The notes: generated by a model from the sequence alone, not told the origin. A stretch of DNA of 64,000 bases from Candidatus Desulfaltia sp. (GCA_030656555.1 JAUSPN010000049.1:36625-100624), one strand, 5' to 3'. Counted from the first letter of the stretch, positions 4,730-52,046 are shown. Made by a program: numbers and translations.

Positions 4730-5098
4730 ATGTCTCGTGAGATTTTTTTTACCAAGGCGGATAGACTATTAAAGCGCCCAGATTTTCTAAGCTTGACGGC
4801 AAAAGGCAGGCGATGCAAAAACAACAATTTTATTGCAGTTTTTGCTTTGGATAAAACCGAAAGAACGCGCCTTGGTATTACTGTTTCAAAAAAGGTTGGA
4901 AACGCTGTCGTTCGCAACAGGATTAAACGATTTACCCGTGAATATTTTCGACTCAACAGGCACAAAAATACAGGGAAAGTGGATATAAACATCATAGCAA
5001 AGAAGGAGGCTGTCAACCTGTCATCAGCCCAGGCTTTTTTGTCCCTGCAAAACATTTTTGACCAAATTACCAAGATTACAAGGAGTCTTTATCATTAA
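4730..5098 (+). CDS. rnpA: Ribonuclease P protein component
   Basis: [21 protein letters not shown] (RNR motif); synteny; start may be 4706. Confidence 0.95.
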
Positions 5099-36056: not shown

Positions 36057-36092
36057 CATTATCGACAGGTTTTCAAGGGAGGTCTTAAGGTT

Positions 36093-36908: not shown

Positions 36909-36923
36909 ATTGGAGGCTAAAAA

Positions 36924-37529
36924 ATGCGTAATAAATTAATTATATTAATATGTTGTACCTTTGTTTTTATAGCCGCTTTCTTGCCGGCTTGTACGAATGA
37001 AAAAAAGGCTCCCGGGCCGACCGAGCAGAATTTTAAGGCTCCGACAGTTACACTGAAATCTGTAGAAGTGGCCCATTACTGGGGATGGTGGTATTTTTCG
37101 AGCAAAGTTGCGCCAACCAAGGGAACGGCTGGTGACTACGGAGCCCCTCTTGATCTTGCCTTTATATTCGACATTCAAAACCCGAATTCCTATCCTGTTT
37201 TAATGGATGGTTTAAAATTTACGGTTGCTTTTGAGGAGTTTGATCTTAACTCACTCAGCTCCATGGAAACTCAGTGGATACCTGCCGGAAAGACAAACCA
37301 GGTGAGAGTTCATGGAATGTTTGACGGAAGGCAGTCTTTGCTTAGTCTTCTTGTTACAGGCGGGTTCAAGCTCCAGGAAAAGGGAGTGACAGCTTTTGAT
37401 CAACTTGAAAAGTGGTGGGTTGGAGTTCCTGAACTTGCCTTTCCGATCAGTGTGAAGGAAGGATCCGCTGTTTTCAAGGCAGACAATTTGACCAAGGTTG
37501 CTGCCTTTAGCGGCACATTTCCAAAATAG
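36924..37529 (+). CDS. Lipoprotein, possibly LEA_2/WHy-like
   Basis: Lipobox LPAC; IQNPNSYP motif. Confidence 0.72.
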   Translation: MRNKLIILICCTFVFIAAFLPACTNEKKAPGPTEQNFKAPTVTLKSVEVAHYWGWWYFSSKVAPTKGTAGDYGAPLDLAFIFDIQNPNSYPVLMDGLKFTVAFEEFDLNSLSSMETQWIPAGKTNQVRVHGMFDGRQSLLSLLVTGGFKLQEKGVTAFDQLEKWWVGVPELAFPISVKEGSAVFKADNLTKVAAFSGTFPK

Positions 37530-37556
37530 TTAACCTGTTCTACTTAAAGTTTGTTT

Positions 37557-37620
37557 TTAACCACAGAGTTCACAGAGAAGATTTTGTTTGGTTATTTCCC
37601 TCTGTGTTCTCTGTGGTAAA
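37557..37620. repeat. Inverted pair of 9-mer tandem repeats (hairpin, possible terminator)
   Basis: CCACAGAGTTCACAGAG...CTCTGTGTTCTCTGTGG. Confidence 0.6.
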
Positions 37621-37734
37621 TTTGTTTTTTTCATTAAAATGTTACGTTTTTCATCCCTTTATTCCCTGTCTGCCGACAGGCAGGCAATTTTCCATTGTTC
37701 CACTATTCCAGTTTACTGATGAGGTTAGTTCTTT

Positions 37735-39261
37735 ATGGCACTTTATGATTTTACAATTTATGATCTGATCAGCCGCAATGCCGTCTGTTTCGGTGACAGG
37801 CCCGCATGGTTCGAGGTTGATGATAACAGAACTTTAACATTTGCCCGGTACAAGGAAAGTGTGGATAGGCTTGCGTGCGGTTTGCAGGAAGCCGGTATTC
37901 AAAAAACAGATCGAATAGCAGTTTTGGGGAAAAACAGCCTTGAATATTTTCTCTTGTATGGAGCTGCTGCTGCAACAGGGACAATCGTGCTGCCGATTAA
38001 CTGGAGACTGTCTGCTGATGAAGTGTGTTTTAATCTGAATGATTGCGAGCCGACTGTTTTTTTTGTTGATAAAGAATATCAGGAATTAGTCGAGGGATTG
38101 AAAGACAGCCTGCATTCGGTGAAGAAATATTATAATCTCAAACCAGGTGGCGGTGGATTTCTTGATTTTGAATCGCTGATGGATAATCAGGGAGATTTCA
38201 AACAGGTGGATATTTCATCAGATGATGGCCTTGTAATAATTCATACTGCGGCCGTGGGTGGAAGGCCCAGGGGGGCTTTATTGAGCCACGGCAACCTGTT
38301 ATGCGCCAATATGCATTTGAATTATAATTTAAATATGACGCCTGAAGATGTGCATTTAAATTTGTTGCCCCTTTTCCATACAGCCGGTCTTTTTACGGCA
38401 ACGGGCAGTTTTCAAGCAGGCGCCTTAAATATAAACATGAGTAAATTTGAACCTGAAAAGGCAGTAGAACTTATTTGCGATAAAAAGGTTACTGTGCTGT
38501 TTGATTTTGCGCCTATACTTTCCTCGATTCTTGAACAGCATGAGAAAACAGGGAAAAACATAAAAACCCTGAAAAAAATATTAGGGATAGATACACCTGA
38601 AACCATAGAAAAATATCAGAAAACAACAGGCGGCATCTTTTACTGTCTGTACGGGCAGACAGAAACATCATGCCTGGCAACTCTTGGTCCATACAACGAC
38701 AGGCCGGGTTCAGCAGGAAAGATGTTAGAGTTGACTGTGGTAAGAGTGGTGGATAATTATGATAATCCTCTGCCTACAGGTCAAACCGGTGAAATTACTT
38801 TAAAAGGTCCCATGGTTTTTAAGGGCTACTGGAATCTTCCCAAGGTAAATGAACATATCTTTCGTGAAGGGTGTCATCACACAGGAGATCGGGGTCGTTT
38901 TGATGAGGAGGGCTTTTTATGGTATATGGGTCGAACACCAGACAAGGAGCTTATTAAGCCCGGAGGTGAAAATGTCTATCCTTATGAGGTGGAAAAGGTT
39001 ATTCTCCAGCATTTGGACGTTGAGAAGGTGATTGTTTTCGGAGTGCCTGATCCCAAATGGAAAGAAGGAATAAAAGCTGTCTGCTTGTTAAAAAAAGGCA
39101 AGACACTTGATCAGCAGGATCTTATTAGCTTTGTGGGTAATCGCATAGCAAGTTACAAAAAGCCTCAATATGTTGAATTCGTGTCGGATTTACCTTTACT
39201 TGAGGATGGATCATTAGACAGAGCCAAAATAAAAGAGCTGTATGGAGGCATGCGGGAGTAA
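37735..39261 (+). CDS. AMP-binding acyl-CoA synthetase
   Basis: HTAAVGGRPRG (variant P-loop), YGQTE, HHTGD, IKPGGENVYP. Confidence 0.88.
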   Translation: MALYDFTIYDLISRNAVCFGDRPAWFEVDDNRTLTFARYKESVDRLACGLQEAGIQKTDRIAVLGKNSLEYFLLYGAAAATGTIVLPINWRLSADEVCFNLNDCEPTVFFVDKEYQELVEGLKDSLHSVKKYYNLKPGGGGFLDFESLMDNQGDFKQVDISSDDGLVIIHTAAVGGRPRGALLSHGNLLCANMHLNYNLNMTPEDVHLNLLPLFHTAGLFTATGSFQAGALNINMSKFEPEKAVELICDKKVTVLFDFAPILSSILEQHEKTGKNIKTLKKILGIDTPETIEKYQKTTGGIFYCLYGQTETSCLATLGPYNDRPGSAGKMLELTVVRVVDNYDNPLPTGQTGEITLKGPMVFKGYWNLPKVNEHIFREGCHHTGDRGRFDEEGFLWYMGRTPDKELIKPGGENVYPYEVEKVILQHLDVEKVIVFGVPDPKWKEGIKAVCLLKKGKTLDQQDLISFVGNRIASYKKPQYVEFVSDLPLLEDGSLDRAKIKELYGGMRE

Positions 39262-39265
39262 AAAG

Positions 39266-39748
39266 ATGATTAGAACAGAGATATCACTTTTTCTAAAGAA
39301 TGTTCCAGGAGAACTAGGGAAACTGTCATCAATGCTTGAAAAGGACGGGATCAATATTGATGCTCTCACTATACAGGACGCATCGAGTTATGTTAAGGAG
39401 CTTTTTCAGGCAAGAGGAAAATCATTAAAGAGAATCGCTTCAGTTGCGAGCTATAACTCGATGAGAAAGGACTCGGCCCAGTTTGCGCTGATACGTTTTT
39501 TAGTTGACCAGACAGACAAAGCAATAGACCTGTTATCAAAAAACGGGTATATTTTTGATATTATGCCTGTGATTGCAGTTGAACTCGAAAACATCCCTGG
39601 CGCTCTTGCCAGGATGGCGGTGAAATTAGGAGAAAAGGGAATTAATATTAACTATGTTTACGGCTCAGTCTCATCTCCGGAAGCAAAATGCCTTTTTGTG
39701 TTCTGCCCGGAAGATATAGACCTGGCAGCTAAAGTATTTAAAGAATAA
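39266..39748 (+). CDS. ACT domain protein
   Basis: Two ACT repeats: NVPGEL..GINI and NIPGAL..GININYVY. Confidence 0.85.
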   Translation: MIRTEISLFLKNVPGELGKLSSMLEKDGINIDALTIQDASSYVKELFQARGKSLKRIASVASYNSMRKDSAQFALIRFLVDQTDKAIDLLSKNGYIFDIMPVIAVELENIPGALARMAVKLGEKGININYVYGSVSSPEAKCLFVFCPEDIDLAAKVFKE

Positions 39749-39766
39749 GCCGCTAACAACCTTAAC

Positions 39767-39982
39767 TGTTATGGTCGGCGCTTATCTTTTAAAATATGGT
39801 TTGAGATAACTATCCTCTGAATTTCTGATGTTCCTTCGTAAATAGTAAAAACACGCGCATCCCTGTAAAATCTCTCCACAGGATATTCCTTAATATACCC
39901 ATAACCACCGTCGATTTGGAGCGCCTTTGCGGTAACACGATTTACCATTTCAGAGGCAAAAAGCTTTGCCATAGAAGCCTGG
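39767..39982 (-). repeat. Left 216-bp direct repeat (displaced 3' end of acyl-CoA dehydrogenase)
   Basis: Colinear with 48832-49047; 24 substitutions by hand count; perfect 42-bp block at 39941-39982. Confidence 0.92.
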
Positions 39983-40281
39983 GCGGCAAGCTCGGAATGC
40001 TTTTCGGAATCAAGCCCGCATTCGGAAAGCTCTTCTTCAAATCTTATTTTCCGTGAATCATCCAGCAAATCTAAAATATACTCGTTGACCCGCCCCATTT
40101 CATCTCTCAATGTATAGCAAAGCATATTCATGCTTTTCTCATCCAGTGTGAAATAGCGGTCTAAATGCCGCCGCAGATATAAAGTGCACTTTTTCAAGGC
40201 AAAGCATTCATTTTTATCAAGAGTTGCTTTGGAATCTGTTAGTATCCGCTTTTTTCTTCGATGTTTTTTACGCGCTACCAA
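39769..40281 (-). pseudogene. Chimeric ORF: ~100 aa truncated island gene fused in frame to the ACAD C-terminus
   Basis: Last ~70 aa (QASMAKLF...DKRRP) match 48834..49988 except F>Y and H>D; N-terminus unrelated. Confidence 0.75.
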
Positions 40282-40325
40282 TCTCCTTTTTGACTTGTTT
40301 CTTTATATTATAACATAACGGCTGT

Positions 40326-40419
40326 TCCCTTAAAGTCCCCCTTTGAAGGGGGATTATAGGGGGATGTTACTCATGGAAATACTATCAAAACACCCCCCTG
40401 CCCCCCTCAAGGGGGGAAT
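40326..40419. repeat. REP-like CCCCCTT/AAGGGGG palindrome doublet
   Basis: TCCCCCTTTGAAGGGGGA...CCCCCCTCAAGGGGGG. Confidence 0.65.
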
Positions 40420-40470
40420 AAGTTGTGGTTTGATTATTTCAGAATGAAATTATATTATAGCATGTTAATA

Positions 40471-40490
40471 TTCCATATCACGGAACGGAA
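40471..40490 (+). promoter_or_regulatory. Putative operator upstream of the WYL gene
   Basis: TTCCATATCACGGAACGGAA, 17/20 identical to the reverse complement of 46908-46927. Confidence 0.55.
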
Positions 40491-40513
40491 ATCCTTTTCC
40501 CTGGAGGTGTTTT

Positions 40514-41542
40514 ATGCCTGAAAAATTAAGCCCTTATAAGAGTTATGGAGAAAAACTGATCAGCCTGTTCGCAAGGCTTATGTTTTCAGGACAAAGCCAT
40601 TCACTCACCGAGCTTTCCAAAACGCTCAAGTGCTCAAAACAGACTGTATTACGATTGGTAAACGACATAAAAAGATCGTATGGCGTAGATATTGAGGAGA
40701 GCATGCAGGGGAATAAAAAATATTACCGACTAAATAAGCCGAAGTTGATACCTCCGGCCATAAATCTTACAGAAATGGAGATGAACGTTCTCAAGATGTG
40801 CAAAGCCTTTTCAGAGCATTTATTAGGCAAAGAGTTTTTTAAAGAAGCAACCCGGGCGCTTGAGAAAAGCCAGGCTCTTCTCCCGAAAGATAAAGCGTTA
40901 TCGTCTCACCCTTTTGCCTCATTTAGCCCGGGAAGCATTGACTATACGCCTCATCAGGAAAGCATTCGTATTCTGTTAGAAGCAATGGAGAAAAAAAGGA
41001 TATGCAAAATCACTTACAGAGCCATTATGTCGGAAAGTTTAAAGACCTTTTACATAAAACCGCTCAAGATTTTTTCACACCATGACACGATCTATCTCCA
41101 CGCCGGTATGGCGAGAAAACCCGGTGAAACATACAAAGAACCTGATTTTGATCCCTTACTGGCAATGCACAGAATTAAAAATGTTGAACTGACGGAAAGG
41201 ATGTTCGAATTCCCCTCAAAATATGACTTTGAGAAAATCTTTAACCAGGATTTCGGAATCATAAAGGAGGATACCTTCAGGGTAGAAGTGGAATTCACCG
41301 GATGGTCGGCCAAATACGTGGCCGAGAGAATATGGAGTCCTGATCAGAAGATCATTAAAAAAGCTGATGGAAAAATAAGACTTATCTTCAGTTCTTCATC
41401 TGAATCCGAGCTGACAGGATGGGCGCTTTCTTTTGCAGACGAGGCAAAAGTGGTTAAGCCGAAGTGGCTGGTTAAAGAAATAAAAGAGACTGTAGGCAGG
41501 ATGCAAGAAGTTTATACGAGGAGCAGGAGTTATCCAGTATAG
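40514..41542 (+). CDS. WYL-domain transcriptional regulator (wHTH-WYL-WCX)
   Basis: N-terminal HTH (ELSKTLKCSKQTVLRLV); IKPLKI..HDTIYL, LAMHRI; VAERIWSPDQ; KVVKPKWL. Confidence 0.9.
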   Translation: MPEKLSPYKSYGEKLISLFARLMFSGQSHSLTELSKTLKCSKQTVLRLVNDIKRSYGVDIEESMQGNKKYYRLNKPKLIPPAINLTEMEMNVLKMCKAFSEHLLGKEFFKEATRALEKSQALLPKDKALSSHPFASFSPGSIDYTPHQESIRILLEAMEKKRICKITYRAIMSESLKTFYIKPLKIFSHHDTIYLHAGMARKPGETYKEPDFDPLLAMHRIKNVELTERMFEFPSKYDFEKIFNQDFGIIKEDTFRVEVEFTGWSAKYVAERIWSPDQKIIKKADGKIRLIFSSSSESELTGWALSFADEAKVVKPKWLVKEIKETVGRMQEVYTRSRSYPV

Positions 41543-41693
41543 CAGACAACAAGGGCTCCGGCTTCAGATCGGATGAGCTGTTGCTGGTGACGAGAGACAC
41601 CGATAAAGAACTCGACAGGACAAGATTCGTTCCCCTGGCATTTAAAACGGTTCATTAAATAATCGTTGCGTTAACGGTTAAATAGAGCTATTC

Positions 41694-41807
41694 ATTACCG
41701 AACGGGAATAAACCGTTGTTTTCCTGTGTGAAATATCAGAATATTCCCGTTCGGTAATTTATCTTGAATTAAAAGTGGGTTGAGCATAAATATTTCCTAT
41801 CGGTAAT
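41694..41807. promoter_or_regulatory. Three putative HipB operators
   Basis: ATTACCGAACGGGAATA (41694-41710), its exact inverse (41742-41758) and TATTTCCTATCGGTAAT (41791-41807). Confidence 0.65.
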
Positions 41808-41865
41808 ATTTTATAGCAAACGGAAAGATTCACCGGTTATTTTTTTGGCAACAGGGAGATAGATT

Positions 41866-42126
41866 GTGGACACAAAAACATTAATATTGGGTCAAAAAAA
41901 TAAGAAAACCTGGATTGAAATTCATAACCTGAAGGCCATTGGTCAGATGGTTCGTGAAAAACGTAAGGCAATGGGAATGACGCAGGCTGAAGCTGCCGGG
42001 CTTTGTAATGTTGGCGCCCGTTTTATGTCCGAACTGGAAAACGGGAAAGCTACTATGCACTTTGATAAAATCATGAAAGTTTTAAGAAGTTTTGGTTTTA
42101 TTATCGGTATTAGTGAAAGGTCTTAA
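41866..42126 (+). CDS. HipB-like XRE antitoxin (y4mF family)
   Basis: MTQAEAAGLCNVGARFMSELENGK HTH directly before hipA. Confidence 0.88.
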   Translation: MDTKTLILGQKNKKTWIEIHNLKAIGQMVREKRKAMGMTQAEAAGLCNVGARFMSELENGKATMHFDKIMKVLRSFGFIIGISERS

Positions 42127-42131
42127 TACCC

Positions 42132-43376
42132 ATGGCAAGATTAGCCATATATTTGCATGATAAGTTTGCTGGATACCTTTGGCTGGATGAAAAAAGGCGT
42201 TTTATTTTCCAGTATGACAAGAACTATATGAATTATTCTGATGCCATACCTCTATCTCTCTATTTGCCATTGCGGGAAGAGCCTTACATCGATGATATCG
42301 CAAAGCCTTTTTTCAGCAATTTGTTGCCGGAGGGTGAGATCAGAGCCCGAATTTCGAAAATTAAACATATTTCAAAGCAAAACGATTTCAAACTGCTGGA
42401 AGCAATTGGCGGTGAGTGTGCCGGAGCTGTCTCTATTCTTCCGCAAGTTGCTGCTCTGGGCGGTAAAGAAGGATATTTATTGCTGCCGGATCAGGAAATT
42501 GAGCAGCTCATGGAAGAAAATGCTGTAAAGCCGATTTTGATTATAAAAGATGAGTTGCGTCTTTCTTTGGCAGGCGCTCAAAATAAAATTCCAATTTTTA
42601 TAAATAACAACAATTTTTATTTGTCGCTTGGAATTGCGCCGAGTTCCCATATTCTCAAGCCCCAAAATCTGTATTTTGAGGATATGGTTCAAAATGAATA
42701 CTTTTGTATGTTGCTTGCCGAAGCAGTTGGATTGCCGGTCCCAAAGCATTTTATATGGAAGGGCGAAAAGTATATTGCATACATAGTGGAACGCTATGAC
42801 AGGGTAAAGAAAAAGGACGGAAGACTTACACGAATTCACCAGGAGGACTTATGCCAGGCGCTTGGCTGTATGCCTGATCAAAAATATGAAACTGAAGGTG
42901 GACCAGGCTTGAGCGACTGTTTCCGTCTGATCGAAACATATAGCATAAATCCTGTTTCAGACAAGCAAGCCTTGATAAAATGGCTAATATTCAATTGTTT
43001 CATCGGCAATGCAGATGCCCATGGAAAAAATTTATCATTTATCAGGACAGGGGGCGGCGGCATTCGCCTGGCGCCCTTTTATGATTTGATTTCAACCAGG
43101 GTTTATCCTGAGCTTTCCTCGAAAATGGCAATGAAAATCGGCATGGAAAACCGTTTTGACTGGATTGTTGAGCGACACTGGCTGCGGCTGGCAGAACAAC
43201 TCGATTTAAAATTTGCATATCTTAAACAGGTAATAGAGGAAACTGCATATACTTTTGAAAAAGTTTCGACTCAAATTGCTGATAAATTAATTGATGAATT
43301 TGACGGCAATAAAACAGTTCTAAAAATTTGTAATATTCTTTCAAATTACATAAAGCATGTAAGGCATTTTCTATAG
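42132..43376 (+). CDS. hipA: HipA-family toxin kinase
   Basis: PLSLYLP, FSNLLPEG, SLAGAQNK, HQEDLCQALG, GNADAHGKN, LAPFYD. Confidence 0.93.
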   Translation: MARLAIYLHDKFAGYLWLDEKRRFIFQYDKNYMNYSDAIPLSLYLPLREEPYIDDIAKPFFSNLLPEGEIRARISKIKHISKQNDFKLLEAIGGECAGAVSILPQVAALGGKEGYLLLPDQEIEQLMEENAVKPILIIKDELRLSLAGAQNKIPIFINNNNFYLSLGIAPSSHILKPQNLYFEDMVQNEYFCMLLAEAVGLPVPKHFIWKGEKYIAYIVERYDRVKKKDGRLTRIHQEDLCQALGCMPDQKYETEGGPGLSDCFRLIETYSINPVSDKQALIKWLIFNCFIGNADAHGKNLSFIRTGGGGIRLAPFYDLISTRVYPELSSKMAMKIGMENRFDWIVERHWLRLAEQLDLKFAYLKQVIEETAYTFEKVSTQIADKLIDEFDGNKTVLKICNILSNYIKHVRHFL

Positions 43377-43524
43377 CGTTGAGAAGATACAGACCTTTTT
43401 AATGAACTACTCCGCCGCAAGCAGCGCAGAATTAACCCCTACAGATTTCGCATCGCACTTCAAGTGATTATAGTAATCTGTGTAATCTGCGAATAAATGT
43501 CTGTTACAAAGACGTTATCCCGGA

Positions 43525-43660
43525 AAGAGAAACAGAAGGTCTGAAGGAGCTGAAGGACTCCGGCTTCAAATCGTATGACCTGTTTCTGGTGACCAGAGAC
43601 ACAGATAAAGAACTGGACCGGATAAGATTCGTCCCCCTTTGGGAGTGGCTTCTAAGCAGG
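43525..43660 (+). pseudogene. C-terminal fragment of an AAA/DUF4143-type ATP-binding protein; second copy at 41551-41636
   Basis: RETEGLKELKDSGFKSYDLFLVTRDTDKELDRIRFVPLWEWLL resembles the usual family C-terminus. Confidence 0.5.
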
Positions 43661-43812
43661 AACTTTTTTTGAGCATGGATTTTCTGAATCCGAGCTGACA
43701 GGATGGGCGCTTTCTTTTGTGGATGAGGCAAGAAACCTCCATACCTCCCTAAATTGGCAAATGCGGCTTTTAACAAGGCGAACATGAATGAGGGAAAGTG
43801 TATTATTAGTCA

Positions 43813-44049
43813 TTAAACCGTGATCCAGCCTGTATATTCTTCATCAGCCATCTTTTGAGCGAATGTTGTCCAATCTATCCTTTTGCTGCTTTGTTTCTTG
43901 GCCGGTGTCCACTGCATTGAACCCTGTCCGACTAACAATGTCCCAAGTCTTAAATTATTACTAAAAATATCAAGTTTTATACCGCTTCCTGCTCTTGTCA
44001 ATTCGTGACTCACCATTGTTGCTGTAACTTTATGCTTCTTTTTTATCAT
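43813..44049 (-). CDS. Small hypothetical protein coupled to the HEAT-repeat gene
   Basis: 78 aa; ATGA overlap with 44046..45551. Confidence 0.65.
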   Translation of the reverse strand: MIKKKHKVTATMVSHELTRAGSGIKLDIFSNNLRLGTLLVGQGSMQWTPAKKQSSKRIDWTTFAQKMADEEYTGWITV

Positions 44050-45551
44050 TTTATTTGGCTCCTTAGTGATGTTGCAACTTTCTTTAAATTATTGCTTGCA
44101 TACTTATCTTTTCCAACCTTATTTAAAGCTGCTGCTGCTCTTTTTGTGCCAATTGCCCCTAATGCCTGAGCAGCTTTTCGTCGTATAATCATGTCTTCAT
44201 CCTTATTCAGCAAAATATCAGAAAGATTCTTGATAGCGATTGCGGCCTTGGTGGTGCCAGCGGCAATAATACATTTTTTCTTTAGTTCATCATCTAAGAA
44301 TTCATAAAATTCAGATTCCAGAAAGTTAGCCAATAATTGGTGTGCTTTTGCATTTTTTGAGTTAGACAAAAAATCAAATAACTCATTAGCTTCGCCGTCG
44401 TAGAACAAGATACCTTGAATGTGGCCAGAATCATCGGAATATTGCTCAAAAAAATCATTTAATACATCTATTGCTGCATCTCCGCCGATGGAGATTATTA
44501 TCCTGAGCAAATTAGCGTAATCTTCATCATCAAGATTTTCTAAAAGCAAAAATTCCGCTTTTTTAAGCACATCATCTAATCTGCACATAGATAAAACAAA
44601 AACTATATGATCTGATAAAATGGAATTATTGTAATTGTGTAATAATGTGCCAAAAAGTTCATCCAGAAAAGATTTGTCTCCAGTATTTTGATATTTTTGC
44701 ATGAAAAAATCAATGGCTACACTTTTTATCTCTTCTTCTTCTTCAAAATCAAACTCCTTTTCCATAACAAATGGAAATGAAAGCACCTTGCCCAAAATTT
44801 CTGAGGCCTGTTTATCATCGATGCGTGAAAGAGAATCCACAATATCAAATATTTGGTAATAGTCATCTTGTGTAATAATCTTATCCCATATATTGTCTAA
44901 CACCCCCATTTCCAATAAGTATTGCGCCAACTCACCCGCTTCTTTTCTAACTTCTCCTTTGCGATCATGTTTTCCTACTGCCTGAACTGGTCCAACAGCA
45001 TAAATACCGAAGCGTTTTTTGTGATCTCGTATAAATTTTATTCCTGCCAAACGATTCATTTCGCTTTTATCCTTTAACAAATCAAGGATATATTGAATTG
45101 GTTCATCTTCGTCCAAAAAGTAAAGCGTTTTTGCTGCCTCGAGTCTGACGTTATGCCATTTGTCTGATAGCAAAGGATAAATATTTTCAACCACATTTAT
45201 ATCTGCAATCTCCCGTAATGATCTAAGTACTGCCTCGCGGACATAGCGACTGTCATCATTTAATGCTTTCGTCAAAATGCTAATCGATTTACTGTTTTTA
45301 ATGCCAGCCAACTTACTTACTACAGCATATCTGATAATTTCACGTTCATTGTTAATCATTTTATAAAAAAGTCCTATGTTTCGGCTATCATTAGTCTGGA
45401 ATTTGAGAATACCACAATATTTTACGAAAGTATCACGGTCGCGAAGCAAATTGCAGATGTTTTCAGGGCTGTATTTTTTGTTTGAATCTGAATACCATGA
45501 CATCACCACAAACTTATCACTGTATTTCTTCAGCGTTGTTCTAAAACTCAT
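44046..45551 (-). CDS. HEAT-repeat (PBS lyase-like) protein
   Basis: LNDDSRYVREAVLRSL, LSDKWHNVRLEAAKTL, IRRKAAQALGAIG; AGGAG RBS; low GC. Confidence 0.85.
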   Translation of the reverse strand: MSFRTTLKKYSDKFVVMSWYSDSNKKYSPENICNLLRDRDTFVKYCGILKFQTNDSRNIGLFYKMINNEREIIRYAVVSKLAGIKNSKSISILTKALNDDSRYVREAVLRSLREIADINVVENIYPLLSDKWHNVRLEAAKTLYFLDEDEPIQYILDLLKDKSEMNRLAGIKFIRDHKKRFGIYAVGPVQAVGKHDRKGEVRKEAGELAQYLLEMGVLDNIWDKIITQDDYYQIFDIVDSLSRIDDKQASEILGKVLSFPFVMEKEFDFEEEEEIKSVAIDFFMQKYQNTGDKSFLDELFGTLLHNYNNSILSDHIVFVLSMCRLDDVLKKAEFLLLENLDDEDYANLLRIIISIGGDAAIDVLNDFFEQYSDDSGHIQGILFYDGEANELFDFLSNSKNAKAHQLLANFLESEFYEFLDDELKKKCIIAAGTTKAAIAIKNLSDILLNKDEDMIIRRKAAQALGAIGTKRAAAALNKVGKDKYASNNLKKVATSLRSQIK

Positions 45552-45585
45552 TACTCAACTCCTTAATAAAATTCTATGTTTGAAA

Positions 45586-45642
45586 TATGACGGAAAGTGG
45601 AAAGCTCACCTCCCGCCATTAGTGGCAGCCACATTCTATGGC
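45586..45642 (-). other. Degenerate attC-like site
   Basis: Minus strand right after HNH stop: GCCATAGAATGTGGCTGCCAC...GGTGAGCTTTCC(ACTTTCC)GTCATAT. Confidence 0.4.
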
Positions 45643-45643
45643 T

Positions 45644-46321
45644 TCATCTAAAGCAGTATTCCGCCAATCGTTTATTTTTCTTTTGGTTACAATGGGCACA
45701 CAAAACTTGAAGATTATCGACAGATTTGCTCGTTCCTTTTCTGCTAAAGGGTAAAATATGGTCAATATGAAAGACAAAACCATCCTTCTTTTGAACATCA
45801 CTCGGCACAGGACAATTAGGATTTTCACAGACCCCACCATTTTTCTCAAATCGGTCTAATATAATCTTTTGAAGATCTATCGGTATCCTTCTCCTTCGTT
45901 TTGAATCACTGTATCTTTTACCTTTTTTGAGACCACTTATAAATTTTATAATTGTATCGAATTCAGCCTTTTCACATAATCGCCATTGTTGGTCATGCGA
46001 TTGATTCTTGGCAGAAGAAATATTCAGAAATGGTTGTTCTGACTCTGGTTTATACATTTTAAATTCTTTGTTTAGCATCAATAACGCCCATCTTTTTCTA
46101 TTCAGGTGCATATAGAAGACTTTTTGTCTATCGTGATATACCTGAAGACCATCATCGGTCTTCATATCTACTATAAGCAGATCGTTTTTTTCACCAAGCT
46201 CCCATAATTGTTTAAGAAAAGAGACAAGTTCTCTTAAAAGTTGAGGCTCAGGTTTATGTAATTGTGCCAAGACTCTAAGAGTGTCGGAATGGCGTTTTGT
46301 TGTTTTTCGATAGGCTTTCAT
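45644..46321 (-). CDS. HNH endonuclease
   Basis: CENPNC, FHIDHILPFSRKG..DNLQVLCAHCNQKK; start MKAY after GGAGG. Confidence 0.88.
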   Translation of the reverse strand: MKAYRKTTKRHSDTLRVLAQLHKPEPQLLRELVSFLKQLWELGEKNDLLIVDMKTDDGLQVYHDRQKVFYMHLNRKRWALLMLNKEFKMYKPESEQPFLNISSAKNQSHDQQWRLCEKAEFDTIIKFISGLKKGKRYSDSKRRRRIPIDLQKIILDRFEKNGGVCENPNCPVPSDVQKKDGFVFHIDHILPFSRKGTSKSVDNLQVLCAHCNQKKNKRLAEYCFR

Positions 46322-46523
46322 CCTTATTGTCCTCCAAACGTGCCGTTCAGTAGCTGATGCAACATAAGAGACATTCTCAATATTTAAAATTATCAATCAT
46401 CAGCAACATAAAGCAAGGCCGCCGCGGGGCGAACCATTAAGTGTAAAGATTAAATTCAATGATATTAGCTATTCTTGGATTAAATTTTGATTTGTTTTGC
46501 ATGGTAACATATCATAATTGTTT

Positions 46524-46605
46524 ATGAAAAAGCAAGATAATCACCAAAAACCACGAAAACTGCTGGATCAGGTGCGTTGACGCCTTAAGGGACTAAACTT
46601 ATCAA
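46524..46605 (+). pseudogene. N-terminal remnant of an integron integrase (IntI)
   Basis: MKKQDNHQKPRKLLDQVR*, continuing DALRTK with two 1-nt corrections; compare IntI KLLDQVRxxIRxKHYS; divergent from the cassette-like genes. Confidence 0.65.
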
Positions 46606-46907
46606 CTTATTTAACGGTTAGTGAATATTTGTTAGCTTCTTGCCTCGAATTACTGATTTACCGACCTTGCCTGTGCAATGCACGCAGACAGGTGGCCTGT
46701 ACCGACGTGTCGGCAATGATATTCTGCAAAAACTTTGTCAGTGGGCTAGCAACCATGGATCAAGCAGGGAAGCCCCGCTGATTTCAATGCCTTATGAATA
46801 GATTAAGCCTATTTTTTTGGTTTAGCCAATAATATCATGACAACGTTCCATATTAAGAAACTGTTAACGAATATTTTTTAACATAAAATCATGTCCGAAA
46901 AAAGGTT

Positions 46908-46927
46908 TTCCATTCCGCAATATGGAA
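46908..46927 (-). promoter_or_regulatory. Second copy of the putative WYL operator
   Basis: TTCCATTCCGCAATATGGAA just before TGCTATGAT (extended -10) of ORF 47013. Confidence 0.55.
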
Positions 46928-47012
46928 CATCTTTATGCTATGATGCGATAAAGCAGGGTTAAGCCAAAACCTTTAGAAAGGTATAATGTTTATCAAACAA
47001 TAGGAGGAAAAT

Positions 47013-47819
47013 ATGATTAAGCGTTTCAGTATGATAGTGGTGTTGTGCGTAATATTTGTTTTCAACTATAATAGCGTTTATGCTGCATCTTTATCACCAT
47101 ACGGAAAGTTTGAATGGTCGGACAATGTCCTCGATGTTTTTAGAAAATTAAAAGAGATTAAAACAATCAAGGAGATATCTATTAAAGGACCAGACAGCTT
47201 TGACAGGGTAAATGCTGTTGGAAAATCAGAAGATGATCTTAAAGCTGGAATTACAGATTTTGTTGCGAAAGGAGCCAAGGGGTGGAGATTCAGCGAGTAT
47301 AATAAGGAAGTTGTTCTTAAGGATGGCAAGAAGAGCCTCTATCATGTCAGAGCAATTAATCTAAAGGCACAACCAATAATTCTTGTTGGAATTCCATACA
47401 GGATTTCATTCAACTTTGTGCAAGTTCCCGGATATGTTTTAAATAATTATGACAAGACTATTAAAATTGATATAAACGGGAAGAAAATTCTGTTTCTTTC
47501 CCAGTTTAAGAGCATTAATCTCACTCCGATTGATAATGAACTGGCTGAAGCATTTCATCAGAAACTATTCGATGTCATAAGGAAGAAGTATCCAGTGTTA
47601 AAAGATGTCTTTGGACATGAATGGGATGGAAAACCAAATTCTATGGCATCCTACTATTCAGAAGATGGTGATTATTCTTTTGGATTCTTTCCAGACAAAC
47701 AGGAACCTGGAATGGAATATACGAACTCGTTCCAGTCGGTAGAGAAAATTTATAATAGCCACAAAAACAATATCTTGTCACAAGAAAACAAGAATAACGA
47801 CTCTTCGTCAGGACTTTAA
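47013..47819 (+). CDS. Secreted hypothetical protein
   Basis: AGGAGG RBS; signal peptide ending VYA; 268 aa. Confidence 0.8.
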   Translation: MIKRFSMIVVLCVIFVFNYNSVYAASLSPYGKFEWSDNVLDVFRKLKEIKTIKEISIKGPDSFDRVNAVGKSEDDLKAGITDFVAKGAKGWRFSEYNKEVVLKDGKKSLYHVRAINLKAQPIILVGIPYRISFNFVQVPGYVLNNYDKTIKIDINGKKILFLSQFKSINLTPIDNELAEAFHQKLFDVIRKKYPVLKDVFGHEWDGKPNSMASYYSEDGDYSFGFFPDKQEPGMEYTNSFQSVEKIYNSHKNNILSQENKNNDSSSGL

Positions 47820-47935
47820 TCCACAGATTACACAGATTTTTCTGCCTGTGCGTGTCCGCGCGAAGACAGGCGTGAGTTATTGAGTTAAATTCCCCGAAGA
47901 TTGTTTCATTTAGATTGCGAAAATCAGATGCGCGA

Positions 47936-47967
47936 TACCCCGTAGCTTGCTGCGGGGTAGTTCATTG
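47936..47967. repeat. REP/IS200-IS605-end-like hairpin
   Basis: ACCCCGTAGCTTGCTGCGGGGTAGTTCATT; degenerate inverse copy at ~43401-43432. Confidence 0.55.
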
Positions 47968-48062
47968 GGACGAGGGAAGTAATTGGGGCGCCACACGGAA
48001 GGATAAGGAGTTTACCGCCGGTTATCGTAGCGTTTTTGCTGGAAAAAACTGAGGAGCTTTTA

Positions 48063-48731
48063 ATGCAGATTAATAATAACGGTTTTCATGGCAAGCTTTG
48101 TATGTCAGAAAGTATGCTTGAATTTATAAGATTAAAAAATGATAAGGAACTCAAGGTTGGCGACCTTATCTCCTTTAATCTTTCTATATACTTTGATCGT
48201 TACGCAGAAACCGATTGCCATGTTCCTCTTCTAAAGCACACAATCTATGACTTATACGAGATACGATTCAGGCCGATTCAAAGATATTATAATGACCAGC
48301 ATAAGAATTGTTATCACTACCTGATTGAGATATTTCCCAATTTGTTGCTGTTCCATTTTAACTGGCTGAAACAATATGAGCAGTACCTGCAAGTCGGTAA
48401 ATGGTACGAAGGCTTTGGAAATCTATCAAACTGTGGTGATCCGTCCGAAGAGAATTCTTTTGTAAAAGCGGCTGATATTAACAAGATTAAACATACTTGC
48501 AGGCTGGAACAAATTCTTGTCAACCAGATTTATCAGAAATGTTTTGAAGAATGGAACCGGCAAATATCAGAAAGCCCGGATTATCAGGGCGTCTTAAACC
48601 GGTTAGGCTATCCTGATAAGATAAATGAATTCCGGCAAAATATAGACAAACAACAAAGAGGAACAAAAGAGATAGAATCTACAGCCATTAATGAAAATTA
48701 TCAGGATTTGGTTTTGTGTTTTAACTTATGA
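48063..48731 (+). CDS. Hypothetical protein
   Basis: GAGGAG RBS before ATG 48063; no recognised motif. Confidence 0.7.
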   Translation: MQINNNGFHGKLCMSESMLEFIRLKNDKELKVGDLISFNLSIYFDRYAETDCHVPLLKHTIYDLYEIRFRPIQRYYNDQHKNCYHYLIEIFPNLLLFHFNWLKQYEQYLQVGKWYEGFGNLSNCGDPSEENSFVKAADINKIKHTCRLEQILVNQIYQKCFEEWNRQISESPDYQGVLNRLGYPDKINEFRQNIDKQQRGTKEIESTAINENYQDLVLCFNL

Positions 48732-48831
48732 TATTAGGAACATGCTTTGAATGGGAAAACCCGGCTACAGTGGAAACCATAAAAGACAAGCTGGCAGAAA
48801 TTAATTATCCTTCAAAATAAGGGATAATATA

Positions 48832-49047
48832 TGTTATGGTCGGCGCTTATCTTTTAAAATGTGGTTTGAGATAACTATCCTCTGTATTTCCGAAGTGCCT
48901 TCGTAAATGGTAAAAACCCGTGCATCCCTGAAAAAACGTTCCACCGGATATTCTTTTATATAGCCGTATCCGCCGTGTATCTGAAGCGCCTTTGCGGTAA
49001 CACGGTTTACCATTTCAGAGGCAAAAAGCTTTGCCATAGAAGCCTGG
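48832..49047 (-). repeat. Right 216-bp direct repeat (functional 3' end of ACAD)
   Basis: Counterpart of 39767-39982. Confidence 0.92.
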
Positions 49048-49988
49048 ACTGTATATTTTTCGCCTCTGTCTTTCATTGCTGCAGCAGAAAACATCAACTG
49101 TCTGGCAGCTTCGATTTCCGTGGCCATATCCGCAATCATCCATCGCAGCCCCTGGAATTTGGAAATCGGCTGGCCGAACTGCTCCCTTTCTTTTGAATAT
49201 TGCACCGCTGCATCTAAAGCAGCCTGGGCTACTCCGACAGACTGGGCGGCAATTCCTATGCGTCCGCCGTCAATGCCTGTCATGGCTATCCTAAAACCCT
49301 CTCCTTCTTTACCAAGCATGTCTTTAACGGGTACGCGGCAATCTTCAAATATAAGATCTGTTGTATCAGAGGCGCACAGCCCCATTTTGTTTTCCGTTTT
49401 GCCGACTATTAACCCTGGGGTTTCCTTTTTTACCAGAAATGCGCTTATACCCTTGTGCTGTTTACTTGCATCGGTAACCGCCGTAACAATAACAACTCCG
49501 GAATTCTTGCCGGAAGTAATAAAACGTTTTGTCCCGTTTAAAATATAAAAATCACCGTCACGCACGGCATTGGTTTTCTGGCTGACAGGATCGGAACCTG
49601 CATTTGGTTCGGTAAGGGCAAAGGCGCCTATGATTATACCGGCTGCAAGCGGTTTTAAAAATCTTTCTTTCTGGTCTTTGGTTCCGGATTTATATATGCT
49701 TTCACAGACAATGGAGTTTTGCACAGACATCACAACCGCTGTTGATGCGCATGAATAGGCTATTTCTGAAAGGGCCAGCACATAAGCCACGGTGTCTGTG
49801 CCTGCACCGTTATACTCGGGAGGTATCATCATTCCCATGAGTCCCAGCTCTCCCATCTGCTTCAGGTTTTCAGCAGGAAACTCTTTGGTCTGATCACGCT
49901 TCATAGCTGTGGGGCTTACAACATTTCTTGAAAAGTCCCTGACCATAGCCTGGATCATTAGTTGATCTTCAGTAAGTTGAAATGACAT
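48834..49988 (-). CDS. Acyl-CoA dehydrogenase (butyryl-CoA dehydrogenase-like)
   Basis: [45 protein letters not shown]. Confidence 0.95.
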   Translation of the reverse strand: MSFQLTEDQLMIQAMVRDFSRNVVSPTAMKRDQTKEFPAENLKQMGELGLMGMMIPPEYNGAGTDTVAYVLALSEIAYSCASTAVVMSVQNSIVCESIYKSGTKDQKERFLKPLAAGIIIGAFALTEPNAGSDPVSQKTNAVRDGDFYILNGTKRFITSGKNSGVVIVTAVTDASKQHKGISAFLVKKETPGLIVGKTENKMGLCASDTTDLIFEDCRVPVKDMLGKEGEGFRIAMTGIDGGRIGIAAQSVGVAQAALDAAVQYSKEREQFGQPISKFQGLRWMIADMATEIEAARQLMFSAAAMKDRGEKYTVQASMAKLFASEMVNRVTAKALQIHGGYGYIKEYPVERFFRDARVFTIYEGTSEIQRIVISNHILKDKRRP

Positions 49989-50075
49989 GGAATTTTCGCC
50001 TTTCCCCGCTCAAGGTCCGGGACATTGGACTTTCCGTTCATCAAAATTAATAATCTCGTAACACCTATTTTATAT

Positions 50076-50280
50076 TCACCGCAGAGCCGCAGAGGACGCA
50101 AAGAAGTTTATTTTTTTTAAATTGTCGTGAGAGGCGACAATTTAAAAGCTAAGCTGTCTGATATAAATGCAATATATCCTCGATATGACAATTTTACTAA
50201 TGAGTTTCTTTTTGTTTTCCGTCCTCTCAACGGAAAACAAAAAACTTTTCATCTTTGCGTTCTTTGCGTCTCGGCGGTGA
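50076..50280. repeat. ~200-bp element with inverted 9-mer repeat arms
   Basis: TCACCGCAGAGCCGCAGAGGACGCAAAGA...TCTTTGCGTTCTTTGCGTCTCGGCGGTGA. Confidence 0.65.
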
Positions 50281-50345
50281 GATATATTTTTCTTGTTTAT
50301 CCTGCTTGCCCGCCTATCTCTGGAGGGTTATCCCGTCAGGTCTTT

Positions 50346-50897
50346 TTATTGCCCGTAGATAACAACTATAAGTTCCGCATCTTTCTTCCCGATATTTCTT
50401 AACATATGTTTTATCCCGGAATTAAAATGAAGGGAATCATTTTTGCTTAGCGTGTTGACATTATCTCCGACTATAACTTCGATTTTACCCGACAGCACAT
50501 AAACAAACTCTTCTCCCTCATGCTGATATTCCACTCCCTTATGATTCTGCATTGCGTCAATAATAACCCGAAAAGCTTTCAGGTGCTTATTTTCAGCGCC
50601 TGGTGTCAGGGTCGTATAAGCATAATTATCCGTTCGTTTGCTATATGCCTTTATCCGTTTCTTTAATTTATCTTCCTGCTCCTTTAATAAAAGCCCTGAA
50701 TCGATTTGTAAAGTTCGTGCGATCCGCAGAATAGTGCCGACAGGAGGAATCACCTTGCCGGCTTCCAGCTTTTTGAGGTAATCGACGGAACATCCGGTTT
50801 CATTGGCAACAAAATCAAGGGTAATCTTTTTTGCCGTCCGGGCCTTCTTTATTTTTTCCCCTATCGGAATAACCGTATCAGCCTTTTTTATTGGCAT
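50346..50897 (-). CDS. XRE-family regulator with cupin domain
   Basis: N-terminal HTH; HEGEEFVYVLSG..DSLHFNS..H. Confidence 0.9.
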   Translation of the reverse strand: MPIKKADTVIPIGEKIKKARTAKKITLDFVANETGCSVDYLKKLEAGKVIPPVGTILRIARTLQIDSGLLLKEQEDKLKKRIKAYSKRTDNYAYTTLTPGAENKHLKAFRVIIDAMQNHKGVEYQHEGEEFVYVLSGKIEVIVGDNVNTLSKNDSLHFNSGIKHMLRNIGKKDAELIVVIYGQ

Positions 50898-50906
50898 AAT
50901 ATCTCC

Positions 50907-51758
50907 TTATTTATATTCGTAGAACCCGCGTCCTGTTTTTCTGCCAAGCCATCCGGCCTCAACATATTTTCTGAGCAGCGGGCAGGGACGGTACTTTGAA
51001 TCTTTAAATCCATTATAAAGTGTTTCCATTATGGCAAGACATGTATCCAGCCCAATAAGATCAGCCAGAGCCAGGGGCCCCATTGGATGATTCATCCCAA
51101 GTTTCATTACAGTGTCAATATCCTCCCTGGTTCCAACTCCATGATATATACAGAAAACAGCTTCGTTAATCATCGGCATGAGGATTCTATTGGCAATAAA
51201 ACCCGGATAATCGTTTGACTCGGCTTGTGTTTTGCCGAATTTTTCAGCCAGATCCCAGGTTGTTTTAAATGTTTCTTCAGAAGTCGCCAGCCCACGTATG
51301 ATTTCAACCAGCTTCATAATCGGCACAGGATTCATAAAATGCATGCCTATTATTTTCTCCGGCCGTTTTGTCTGCGCCGCAATCCGGCCTATGGGAATGG
51401 AGGAGGTGTTAGTTGCTAATATAACATCAGGCGCACAGATTTTATCCAGATTTTGAAAAATCTGAAACTTAAGCAATTCATTTTCAGTGGCAGCCTCAAC
51501 AACAAAGTCGGCCGTTTCCATTTCCTTTAACTCAACGCAGGTCTTGATACGTCCTAAAACAGCTTCCTTCTCATCGGCGGTCATTCGCCCCTTGTCAACA
51601 TTCCGGCTTAAAATTTTTTTAATAGTCGCAAGCCCGCGATCAATAAATTCTGTTTTAATGTCATTCATAATAACATTAAAACCATTCATCGCCGCAACCT
51701 GAGCAATGCCGCCACCCATTTGACCCGCGCCTATAACGCCGATAGTTTTAATATTCAT
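50907..51758 (-). CDS. hbd: 3-hydroxybutyryl-CoA dehydrogenase
   Basis: GAGQMGGGIA, TNTSS, GMHFMNP, NHPMGPL, GWLGRKTGRGFY. Confidence 0.95.
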   Translation of the reverse strand: MNIKTIGVIGAGQMGGGIAQVAAMNGFNVIMNDIKTEFIDRGLATIKKILSRNVDKGRMTADEKEAVLGRIKTCVELKEMETADFVVEAATENELLKFQIFQNLDKICAPDVILATNTSSIPIGRIAAQTKRPEKIIGMHFMNPVPIMKLVEIIRGLATSEETFKTTWDLAEKFGKTQAESNDYPGFIANRILMPMINEAVFCIYHGVGTREDIDTVMKLGMNHPMGPLALADLIGLDTCLAIMETLYNGFKDSKYRPCPLLRKYVEAGWLGRKTGRGFYEYK

Positions 51759-51774
51759 AACAGACTCCTTTGTC

Positions 51775-52042
51775 TGTAACCGTTTACGGTTGTCGGTTTA
51801 CAGTTCACGGTTTTTTTCAATGAACTATGCAACGATTTAAAACGGTTACCGGTTTACAGTTAACTGTTTACGGTTAACCGGTAACTGCAAATCGTAAACT
51901 GTTACCAATAATTTATAAAGACGTACTGATAACCCGCAAGATTTTTTCCAAACTTCTAAATCTTCAAAAGAGGACCCCATAATTCTTTTCTACCTTCTGT
52001 TTTTTTTAACCGTGAACCGATAACTGTAAACCGTGAACGGTT
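51775..52042. repeat. Heptamer tandem repeats (AACCGTG/TAAACCG-type) flanking a gene remnant
   Basis: GTTTACGGTTGTCGGTTTACAGTTCACGGTT ... AACCGTGAACCGATAACTGTAAACCGTGAACGGTT; also at 53355-53380. Confidence 0.7.
51846..51980 (-). pseudogene. N-terminal remnant of a four-helix-bundle (IVP/TIGR02436-like) protein
   Basis: MGSSFEDLEVWKKSCGLSVRLYKLL (FEDLEVW signature), then runs into the repeats. Confidence 0.7.
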
Positions 52043-52046
52043 ATTT

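Follow-up and report, generated by a model that had tools for sequence, protein, structure and literature searches.

A duplicated acyl-CoA dehydrogenase gene end around a putative defence island of Candidatus Desulfaltia: probably a scar of untidy recombination and not a mobile-element footprint

How does the 3' end of a chromosomal gene come to stand twice, with synonymous differences, around a block of foreign-looking DNA? The question is raised by a stretch of 64,000 nucleotides (the window) from Candidatus Desulfaltia sp. (GCA_030656555.1, JAUSPN010000049.1:36625-100624), in which the last part of an acyl-CoA dehydrogenase (ACAD) gene lies on both sides of 8.85 kb of variable, foreign-looking cargo. 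The initial annotation, made from the sequence alone, had taken this cargo for an integrative island that enters the ACAD gene and brings a replacement 3' end of its own. We think it fairly probable that the locus is, instead, the scar of an untidy recombination between versions of a defence-island site, and not the footprint of a mobile element. The genome containing the window, an assembly of 107 contigs, is called G000 below; other genomes, contigs and loci bear G, C and L numbers. The features from which the argument starts are these.

37735 to 39261, plus strand: acyl-CoA ligase (AMP-binding), left flanking core gene (Pfam AMP-binding, 1e-62)
39242 to 39748, plus strand: ACT-domain protein, left flanking core gene (Pfam ACT; adjoins ACAD in G006 and G003)
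39749 to 39768, no strand: native ACT-ACAD spacer, 20 nt, homologous to the spacers of empty sites (G000, G006 and G003 side by side)
39767 to 39982, minus strand: orphan ACAD 3' tail, left copy (codons 315-384 and stop)
39769 to 40281, minus strand: in-frame hybrid open reading frame (ORF) of 170 aa, ATPase stub plus ACAD tail (ORF call, Pfam)
48832 to 49047, minus strand: ACAD 3' tail on the working gene, right copy (gap-free alignment with the left copy)
48834 to 49988, minus strand: full-length acyl-CoA dehydrogenase, 384 aa, right flanking core gene (three ACAD domains by Pfam)

The repeat is exactly as first described, a gap-free alignment of 216 nt (39767-39982 against 48832-49047) that comprises the last 70 codons of the ACAD gene, the stop codon and 2 further nucleotides. 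Our recount gave the same 24 differences between left and right copy, distributed over codon positions 1, 2 and 3 as 2, 1 and 21, a third-position bias with a binomial p of 6e-8. By codon, 21 differ synonymously, one of them (AGA/CGT) through two changes, and two are non-synonymous, H338D and F353Y when going from the right copy to the left; these are the F/Y change and the H>D of the orphan copy already reported. H338D is absent from all 13 relatives aligned. A search of the window's own genome returned the second copy at 89% identity (E = 7.6e-77) and also a weak 70% match, in another ACAD gene further along the contig. The best NCBIfam match of the full-length protein is acryloyl-CoA reductase, below the cut-off. 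On the left, the ACT gene ends at 39748 and the stop codon of the orphan tail ends at 39769. Measurement of the spacer confirmed that ACT and ACAD would be convergent and 20 nt apart without the island, the arrangement that is found in the congeners G006 and G003.

What do the synonymous differences between the two tails mean? Third-position divergence of ACAD was compared among G000, G004, G006, G003 and G009, the latter from another genus. Within the genus it amounts to 9-19% over the first 798 nt of the gene and to 28-39% in the distal tail, where it is as high as the distance to the other genus; the left and right copies of the window differ at 37% of third positions. Among 7 sequences, unique states number 5 in the left copy (H338D included) and 2 in the right one. 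The last ~300 nt of ACAD are hypervariable in the genus, and the two tails appear to be ordinary alleles, which would differ synonymously because the 3' end of the gene carries old, much-recombined allelic diversity. The first reading stands in so far as the tails are separate alleles that diverged under purifying selection in working genes, but neither of them looks like a replacement end borne by an element. The left flank (acyl-CoA ligase and ACT) is patchy as well, with 6-28% divergence per 200-nt window among congeners, and both flanks seem to carry old, shuffled alleles, as expected where recombination in the flanks exchanges cargo. Two more precise uses of these flanks were dropped. In a sliding window the divergence from G004 and G006 falls near 49130-49190, which we had considered as the homologous crossover point until all congener pairs proved to be elevated over the same stretches; and the flanks are too mosaic to tell the resident allele from their similarity.

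In the initial annotation the crossover was placed in a block of 42 nt that is identical between the copies (39941-39982) and contains the inverted repeat GGCAAA-AAGC-TTTGCC. Both the identity and the inverted repeat are present, but they do not make the block special. Other identical runs between the copies measure 29, 23 and 20 nt, and in the 42-nt stretch the congeners differ from G000 at 1 of 40 sites, which gives full identity a chance of ~0.35. Identity is to be expected because the stretch is conserved among congeners; in this sense, the block is unremarkable, just the most conserved coding part of the tail, and not a core site.

The comparison of the ACT-ACAD interval between relatives tells what kind of site this is. 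We could read it in four genomes of the genus (G000, G003, G004 and G006): in G006 and G003 the gap is empty, with ACT, a homologous spacer and ACAD in succession, and in the two others it is filled with unrelated cargo. One contig of run X4, which belongs to a different study, links 39748 to 48837 through 22 other letters and represents one more empty site. An empty ACT-ACAD site had been predicted, and G006, G003 and the X4 contig provide it. By annotation, the G000 cargo consists of a WYL regulator, an IetA-like stub, HipBA, a HEAT-repeat protein with an HNH endonuclease and several ORFs without family; that of G004 is ~10.5 kb of other genes, among them RadC, type I restriction-modification (RM), PIN and DUF7019, with neither tail repeat nor integrase. 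The expectation of different cargo at the same core is therefore borne out by the content of the gap, but the G004 cargo lacks the repeat and the integrase that an element should show. Judged by annotation alone, both would be putative defence island content. The gap between ACT and ACAD is a variable hotspot with conserved flanking genes and differing content, empty sites included. The two ACAD tails occur only in the window: a tblastn search with the 70-residue tail over 8 ACAD loci found a second tail in none of the 7 others. As a side observation, hsdR of the G004 cargo (L024 5601-8517) is present as two overlapping ORFs of 645 and 389 aa and is probably broken.

The left edge of the island is where its origin can be read most directly. 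Two features meet there.

39983 to 40281, minus strand: 5' stub of a gene for an IetA-like double AAA+ ATPase (~100 codons), the remainder of the gene missing (DNA identity to relatives)
39981 to 39984, no strand: apparent illegitimate junction of ACAD codon 314/315 to ATPase codon ~100 (alignment with intact ATPase genes)

The stub shares 84-88% DNA identity with the start of genes of 734-752 codons in relatives. Window positions 39983-40316 match the start of full-length ATPase genes that stand beside the same WYL gene and run on past the junction. In relatives the intact ATPase is divergently paired with the WYL regulator; its product, which measures 738 aa (L065) or 752 aa (L063), has two AAA domains by Pfam, and PADLOC scores it as IetA-like (2e-40). 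The ATPase loci come from a scan of one genome per species (6 loci) and from metagenome contigs (2 loci). From the start of the match the frame is open for 734-738 codons in L084, L085, L086 and L090, reaches the contig end in L091, and in L087 and L088 is closed after 596 and 101 codons, respectively; the more distant L089 has an ORF of 737 aa. Because the full-length ATPase continues in relatives, the left edge of the island is a broken gene and not the end of an element; about the 3' 85% of the gene is absent from the island. At the junction itself, 39982|39983, the two genes share a microhomology of 2 nt and, 11 nt off, a patchy match of 8 nt, CTTTGCCA. The join cuts two genes and has the marks of illegitimate, microhomology-mediated joining rather than those of an attachment site. 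By accident alone, one such fusion in three would be in frame, and the 170-aa hybrid ORF is probably a by-product of the join. It retains the start region of the ATPase gene beside the WYL gene, so that a putative 170-aa chimera under WYL control may be encoded here.

A junction that truncates two genes of the same strand is also what a simple deletion would produce. In such an account, two full ACAD copies arose by tandem or segmental duplication, cargo included, and a later deletion ran from codon 314 of the left ACAD to about codon 100 of the ATPase. Other ATPase loci look shortened elsewhere (L087, with its 596-codon frame and homology lost after ~nt 1700), and the protein database holds ATPase forms of 84, 85, 340 and 536 aa, possibly contig-end cuts. 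We hold this history to be unlikely. Two ACAD copies are found at none of the 7 other loci, the third-position difference of 37% is at the level of congeners and would need a very old duplication or later replacement, and the account takes more steps than one recombination between two alleles. The initial annotation had itself named, as what would speak against an island, an old paralogue with no empty-site allele anywhere; empty alleles exist in G006, G003 and the X4 contig.

Could the junction be an artefact of assembly, the contig joining two strains, one with an empty site and the other with the island? The 107-contig assembly gives some reason to ask, since an identical block of 42 nt could confuse a de Bruijn graph, and the Logan contigs listed do break at that block, as k-mer graphs do. 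The left junction, however, shares 2 nt only, and no k-mer overlap could create it. In run X1, which is possibly the source sample and is to be read as re-assembly and not as independent data, the Logan contigs have depths of 38.9 (ACT with the left tail), 33-39 (island), 37.9 (right tail) and 40.6 (ACAD body). They are level and not additive, whereas two strains sharing one ACAD body would sum there. The contig data speak against the chimera of two strains, another outcome foreseen by the initial annotation, and we consider it extremely improbable.

The idea of a site-specific element deserves a closer look. Integrase islands that enter the 3' ends of dusA, guaA or prfC restore the target gene. 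An element of this type at the present locus would have had the ACAD 3' end in its attP, would have crossed over in the 42-bp core through a tyrosine or serine recombinase, and would have lost its integrase later. The likeness is real: a gene 3' end is directly repeated on both sides of foreign DNA, the inner edge being an identical block, the gene is intact, both tails evolved under purifying selection, and an empty single-copy site exists, although the recombination of alleles predicts the latter too. However, no integrase or recombinase, nor a remnant of one, was found by Pfam on the main ORFs of the island. Of 69 stop-to-stop frames of at least 45 aa, 7 are genes already scanned and the 62 further ones gave no Pfam family at E <= 0.01, and a six-frame search with PF00589 returned 22 matches in the genome and none on this contig. 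The absence of an intact integrase, already noted, extends in these searches to recognizable remnants. Nor are the ends those of an element: the supposed left end falls inside an ATPase gene which relatives have whole, the inner edge of the repeat is a gene-gene fusion, and a later deletion would need to stop exactly at the edge of the repeat. There are no recurring defined termini, the blocks of the island occurring separately in other contexts, and the same site in G004 holds unrelated cargo free of repeat and integrase. The identity of the supposed core is expected from conservation. Among the X1 contigs listed there is no attP or circle joint, such contigs dropping rare variants. An Rfam scan of 36000-53000 yielded nothing at E <= 0.1, so there is no tRNA, tmRNA or other RNA target at the site. 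Of the marks of an integrase-type insertion, then, the flanking repeat and the empty site are present and the recombinase and defined termini are absent. A site-specific element with its crossover in the 42-bp block seems to us very unlikely.

The right edge of the island points in the same direction as the left one, away from an insertion into the ACAD gene. One feature has to be added here.

48749 to 48820, plus strand: remnant of a copZ-like metal-chaperone gene, last ~22 codons (tblastn, 95% over 22 residues)

Positions 48749-48814 encode the last 22 residues of a protein whose intact gene, of 77 aa, stands beside a Cu-ATPase gene in G002 (L029 6315-6548). The right copy of the repeat begins 2 nt past the ACAD stop codon. 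Because the edge lies there, beside the copZ-like remnant, the cargo would have sat in the intergenic gap downstream of ACAD, and the claim that the island inserts into the ACAD gene does not hold. In the source lineage of the right side the cargo appears itself to have cut another gene, the copZ-like one, and ACAD appears never to have been interrupted on this side, with no need of repair.

The anatomy of the locus and the truncation of the ATPase gene are shown, and so are hypervariable flanks, sites that are empty or hold other cargo, and the lack of a recombinase; from these we infer an event with two crossovers. The locus is, in our judgement, rather probably a recombinant of two alleles of one variable site, produced by one homologous and one illegitimate exchange. 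The empty-type allele would have consisted of ACT, the 20-nt spacer and ACAD; the occupied-type allele would have held, between the same two genes, defence and toxin-antitoxin cargo including a full WYL-regulated AAA+ ATPase gene. A first crossover would have been an ordinary homologous exchange in a flanking gene. The second, illegitimate, would have joined codon 314/315 of the empty-type ACAD to about codon 100 of the occupied-type ATPase at the 2-nt microhomology, next to the patch of partial similarity, as happens in homology-facilitated illegitimate recombination (HFIR) or when microhomology mediates repair. The same event may equally be read as the repair of a break in the ATPase gene with the empty-type allele as template. 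In either case the 3' 85% of the ATPase would be lost and the ACAD tail of the empty type left orphaned beside ACT, while the working ACAD would keep its own occupied-type tail, with nothing to restore. The predicted product (ACT, spacer, orphan tail, ATPase stub, other cargo and untouched ACAD) has the order observed. The left tail is in its native context: between it and ACT lies a spacer homologous to the one at the empty sites of G006 and G003.

Several observations weigh against a recombination of two alleles. An occupied-type parent, carrying the whole ATPase gene between ACT and ACAD, did not turn up in the genomes and contigs searched: one genome per species (6 loci), metagenome contigs (2 loci) and 401 genomes of the order. 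No unique homologous crossover could be placed, all congener pairs being elevated where the drop at 49130-49190 is seen. As for a route of DNA uptake, homologues of comEC and dprA are present, but both families match 10-11 of 14 control genomes. Among the X1 Logan contigs listed, no piece bridges 39971-40002, an absence that by itself counts neither way. Finally, the same ATPase gene has been cut a second time, in G009, where the orphan gene end is not in a native position and dsrAB, tatCA, moaC and further core genes lie between the copies. The breakpoints in the ATPase of G000 and of G009 contig C1 are only 11-21 nt apart in a gene of 2.2 kb, and this counts against our reading because random illegitimate joins do not predict it. 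The loci of this second fusion, on contig C1 of G009, are the following.

L066 8271-9192 and L081 9529-10216: ATPase stub joined to a hypD 3' fragment, and the segment that is repeated at the complete hypD gene

The ATPase stub of G009, the same as in the window, runs into a 3' fragment of hypD (Pfam HypD positions 147-351 of 351), the two meeting at a microhomology of 10 nt. The complete hypD gene stands ~39 kb away, and a segment of 688 nt is common to both places with 10 differences; it is made of the hypD 3' end and ~70 nt past its stop codon, in which there is a 68-nt multi-copy repeat. For the homologous exchange, a multi-copy repeat located at the outer edge may have been the anchor. 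Different contigs carry SppA and hypD in the congener G013, and for this reason the orphan hypD copy of G009 is taken to be the displaced one. We also tried to derive the ancestral arrangement from the hypD neighbourhoods of G000, G006 and G013; it could not be established, G013 showing only that SppA and hypD are non-adjacent. A cut near codon 100 was seen only in G000 and in G009 contig C1 among the ATPase loci searched.

Two cuts so close together suggest another explanation, a directed process in which the ATPase gene recurrently breaks or recombines near codon 100 and the damage is mended with 3' gene fragments, copied or captured from elsewhere, such as those of ACAD and hypD. In each of the two genera a different housekeeping gene contributed the 3' fragment, yet the junctions are 11-21 nt apart and owe their microhomology to one and the same short ATPase segment, and the captured tail of G009 is 99% identical to the resident hypD. 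On the other hand, there are two cases only, and the G000 and G009 modules are related (hipBA 95% identical), so that their independence is doubtful. No mosaic boundary is seen at that site in intact ATPase genes, and other short forms end elsewhere (~residues 71-74, 340, 536, ~596), although these may be contig-end cuts. The left ACAD tail is 11% off the right one, and the resident gene in its present form was therefore not the template for a copy. We give such a directed process little credence, slightly less even than a site-specific element, and find it just as doubtful that the WYL-controlled, IetA-like ATPase has a preferred break site at ~codon 100 that is patched with the 3' ends of other genes into in-frame or near-frame stub-tail fusions.

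Some further alterations of gene ends were noticed. In L087/L064 (G001 contig C270), ATPase homology is lost after ~nt 1700 and the frame is only 596 codons long; the 3' part of the gene may have been altered here a third time, independently. In the protein database the ATPase exists in short forms of 84, 85 and 74 aa and in intermediate forms of 340, 536, 577 and 671 aa, possibly contig-end cuts. A self-scan of the genome gave 69 direct repeats on the same contig, from which 29 low-copy pairs were screened by ORF geometry and two taken to Pfam. One of them, on G000 contig C79 (L092), is a pair of orphan 3' tails (781-1004 and 4793-5016), 92% identical and 4 kb apart, which correspond to the last ~170 nt of a 307-aa Y1-transposase-like gene; between the copies lie Phd/PIN, DUF4143 (ATPase) and DUF4160/DUF2442 genes, toxin-antitoxin genes among them, and an epimerase stub. 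The other, on contig C94, is no orphan tail, as it proved to be two complete cobO paralogues.

What, then, is the cargo between the two tails made of? From left to right it holds, beside the ATPase stub and the copZ-like remnant, the following features. Short multi-copy repeats resembling miniature inverted-repeat transposable elements (MITE) or repetitive extragenic palindromes (REP) are listed with the genes.

40330 to 40442, no strand: multi-copy short repeat (MITE/REP-like) between ATPase stub and WYL gene, with copies elsewhere
40514 to 41542, plus strand: WYL/WCX-domain regulator (Pfam WCX, WYL; PADLOC WYL)
41866 to 43376, plus strand: hipB-like helix-turn-helix gene and hipA kinase toxin, toxin-antitoxin (Pfam HTH_3, HipA_C, Couple_hipA)
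43413 to 43493, no strand: multi-copy short repeat with matches in many genomes of the order
43553 to 43733, no strand: displaced fragments of the WYL gene 3' end and its downstream region (direct repeats D2-D4)
43813 to 46396, minus strand: 78-aa ORF, HEAT-repeat protein (501 aa) and HNH endonuclease (250 aa) (Pfam; weak PADLOC matches)
46430 to 46576, no strand: multi-copy short repeat, 147 nt, the sole sequence common to the G000 island and the G004 cargo
46949 to 48735, plus strand: block with two family-less ORFs (268 aa, with a signal-peptide-like start, and 231 aa), with matches in other contexts
47871 to 47966, no strand: multi-copy repeat between the two family-less ORFs, with copies elsewhere

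The WYL block is 89-94% identical in 7 other loci, and the hipBA block is a separate one, found as 91-95% identical blocks in three other genomes at other places. The right-hand block, whose two ORFs are at 47013-47819 and 48036-48731, recurs at 89-92% identity in G008 and G012, where its surroundings differ but its right edge is almost unchanged (within 4 nt). Because the WYL, hipBA and right-hand blocks each occur at 89-95% elsewhere, and pieces of the WYL tail and the copZ remnant lie among them, the island is an accretion of separately distributed blocks and gene fragments. The HEAT/HNH block would be candidate defence cargo; the G+C content of 43813-46396 is 33-37%, against 42-47% in the flanks.

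Fragments of the WYL 3' end are also seen in relatives, behind cassettes of hipBA, ORF6N and PDDEXK genes. L065 has three extra copies (10831-11001, 13473-13630 and 14690-14857), and L066 (11664-11791), L037 (1716-1814) and L063 (1168-1413) have one each. Several of them begin near one position, about 41354-41359 in window numbering, and they may be copies of one old event or the result of repeated events.

The four intergenic short repeats of the island (80-150 nt, MITE/REP-like) are found in many genomes of the order. That at 40330-40442 has copies of 87-95% identity in G269 and G253 and a partial match of ~80% in G116, and the relatives lack it at this place; that at 46430-46576 has two further copies on G000 contig C82. 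Outside the island, upstream of ACAD, 49990-50340 gives no alignment to G004 and G006 (45-97% mismatch per window) and has about four-fold contig depth in X1; it probably holds another multi-copy repeat.

How does the locus compare with known systems? The original work on HFIR was done in Acinetobacter, Streptococcus and Pseudomonas. In PMC3240628 the process is described in naturally transformable bacteria and, with low efficiency, in E. coli conjugation. As in HFIR, the exchange would rest on extended homology at one end and, at the other, on a short microhomology within otherwise unrelated sequences, with genes truncated and no dedicated recombinase. Short junctions of this type are found at 39982|39983 (2 nt plus the 8-nt match) and in G009 (10 nt), and as for the homologous anchor, both flanks are homologous to relatives and mosaic, without a unique crossover point. 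Unlike HFIR, the process is read here from the genome anatomy of an uncultured sulfate-reducer lineage, and a duplicated gene end is kept instead of the usual small deletion.

Defence hotspots offer a second comparison. The core defence hotspots of Pseudomonas aeruginosa, cDHS1 and cDHS2, have no detectable mobile gene in 29% and 47% of sites, and their transfer via homologous recombination of conserved flanks has been proposed (PMC10250203); hotspots of defence islands are described for E. coli too (PMC10121019). Like those, the present site has fixed flanking core genes and a cargo that varies between close relatives, with RM, toxin-antitoxin and candidate defence genes. It differs in being represented by 4 congener loci and one metagenome contig only, in lacking a flanking tRNA or tmRNA, in its hypervariable flanks, and in that one occupant bears a visible scar of illegitimate recombination.

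The third parallel is the displacement of C-terminal ends in Rhs, contact-dependent inhibition (CDI) and type VI secretion system (T6SS) genes. In these, incoming DNA recombines via the conserved part and the older 3' piece is kept as an orphan, and for the T6SS effector-immunity arrays of Vibrio cholerae HFIR has been proposed (PMC5361080). Repeated rounds lead there to strings of fragments, which the WYL-tail fragments of the island and of relatives resemble. Unlike those toxins, ACAD is a metabolic enzyme whose tails encode nearly the same peptide, so that an exchange of them brings no new function, with no immunity gene and no sign of selection for exchange. The locus is, in sum, a further example of known processes, in which one detail stands out, the near-coincident breakpoints of two genera.

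Our reading implies that the duplication of a gene end around an island, synonymous differences included, can arise without an integrase, through untidy recombination between alleles of a hotspot, and it removes a tempting false positive from the search for integrative elements. The microhomology joins and the orphan gene ends show how such hotspots are rebuilt, and the repeated erosion of a putative defence gene, the WYL-regulated ATPase, is documented here. If the breakpoints were non-random, the ATPase gene itself would merit study. A preferred break site, if true, would mean a recurrent and site-preferring disabling of a defence gene together with the duplication of chromosomal gene ends. 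For this uncultured, Desulfobacteraceae-like lineage, the locus adds a hotspot free of mobility genes, whose flanking genes carry a deep allelic diversity.

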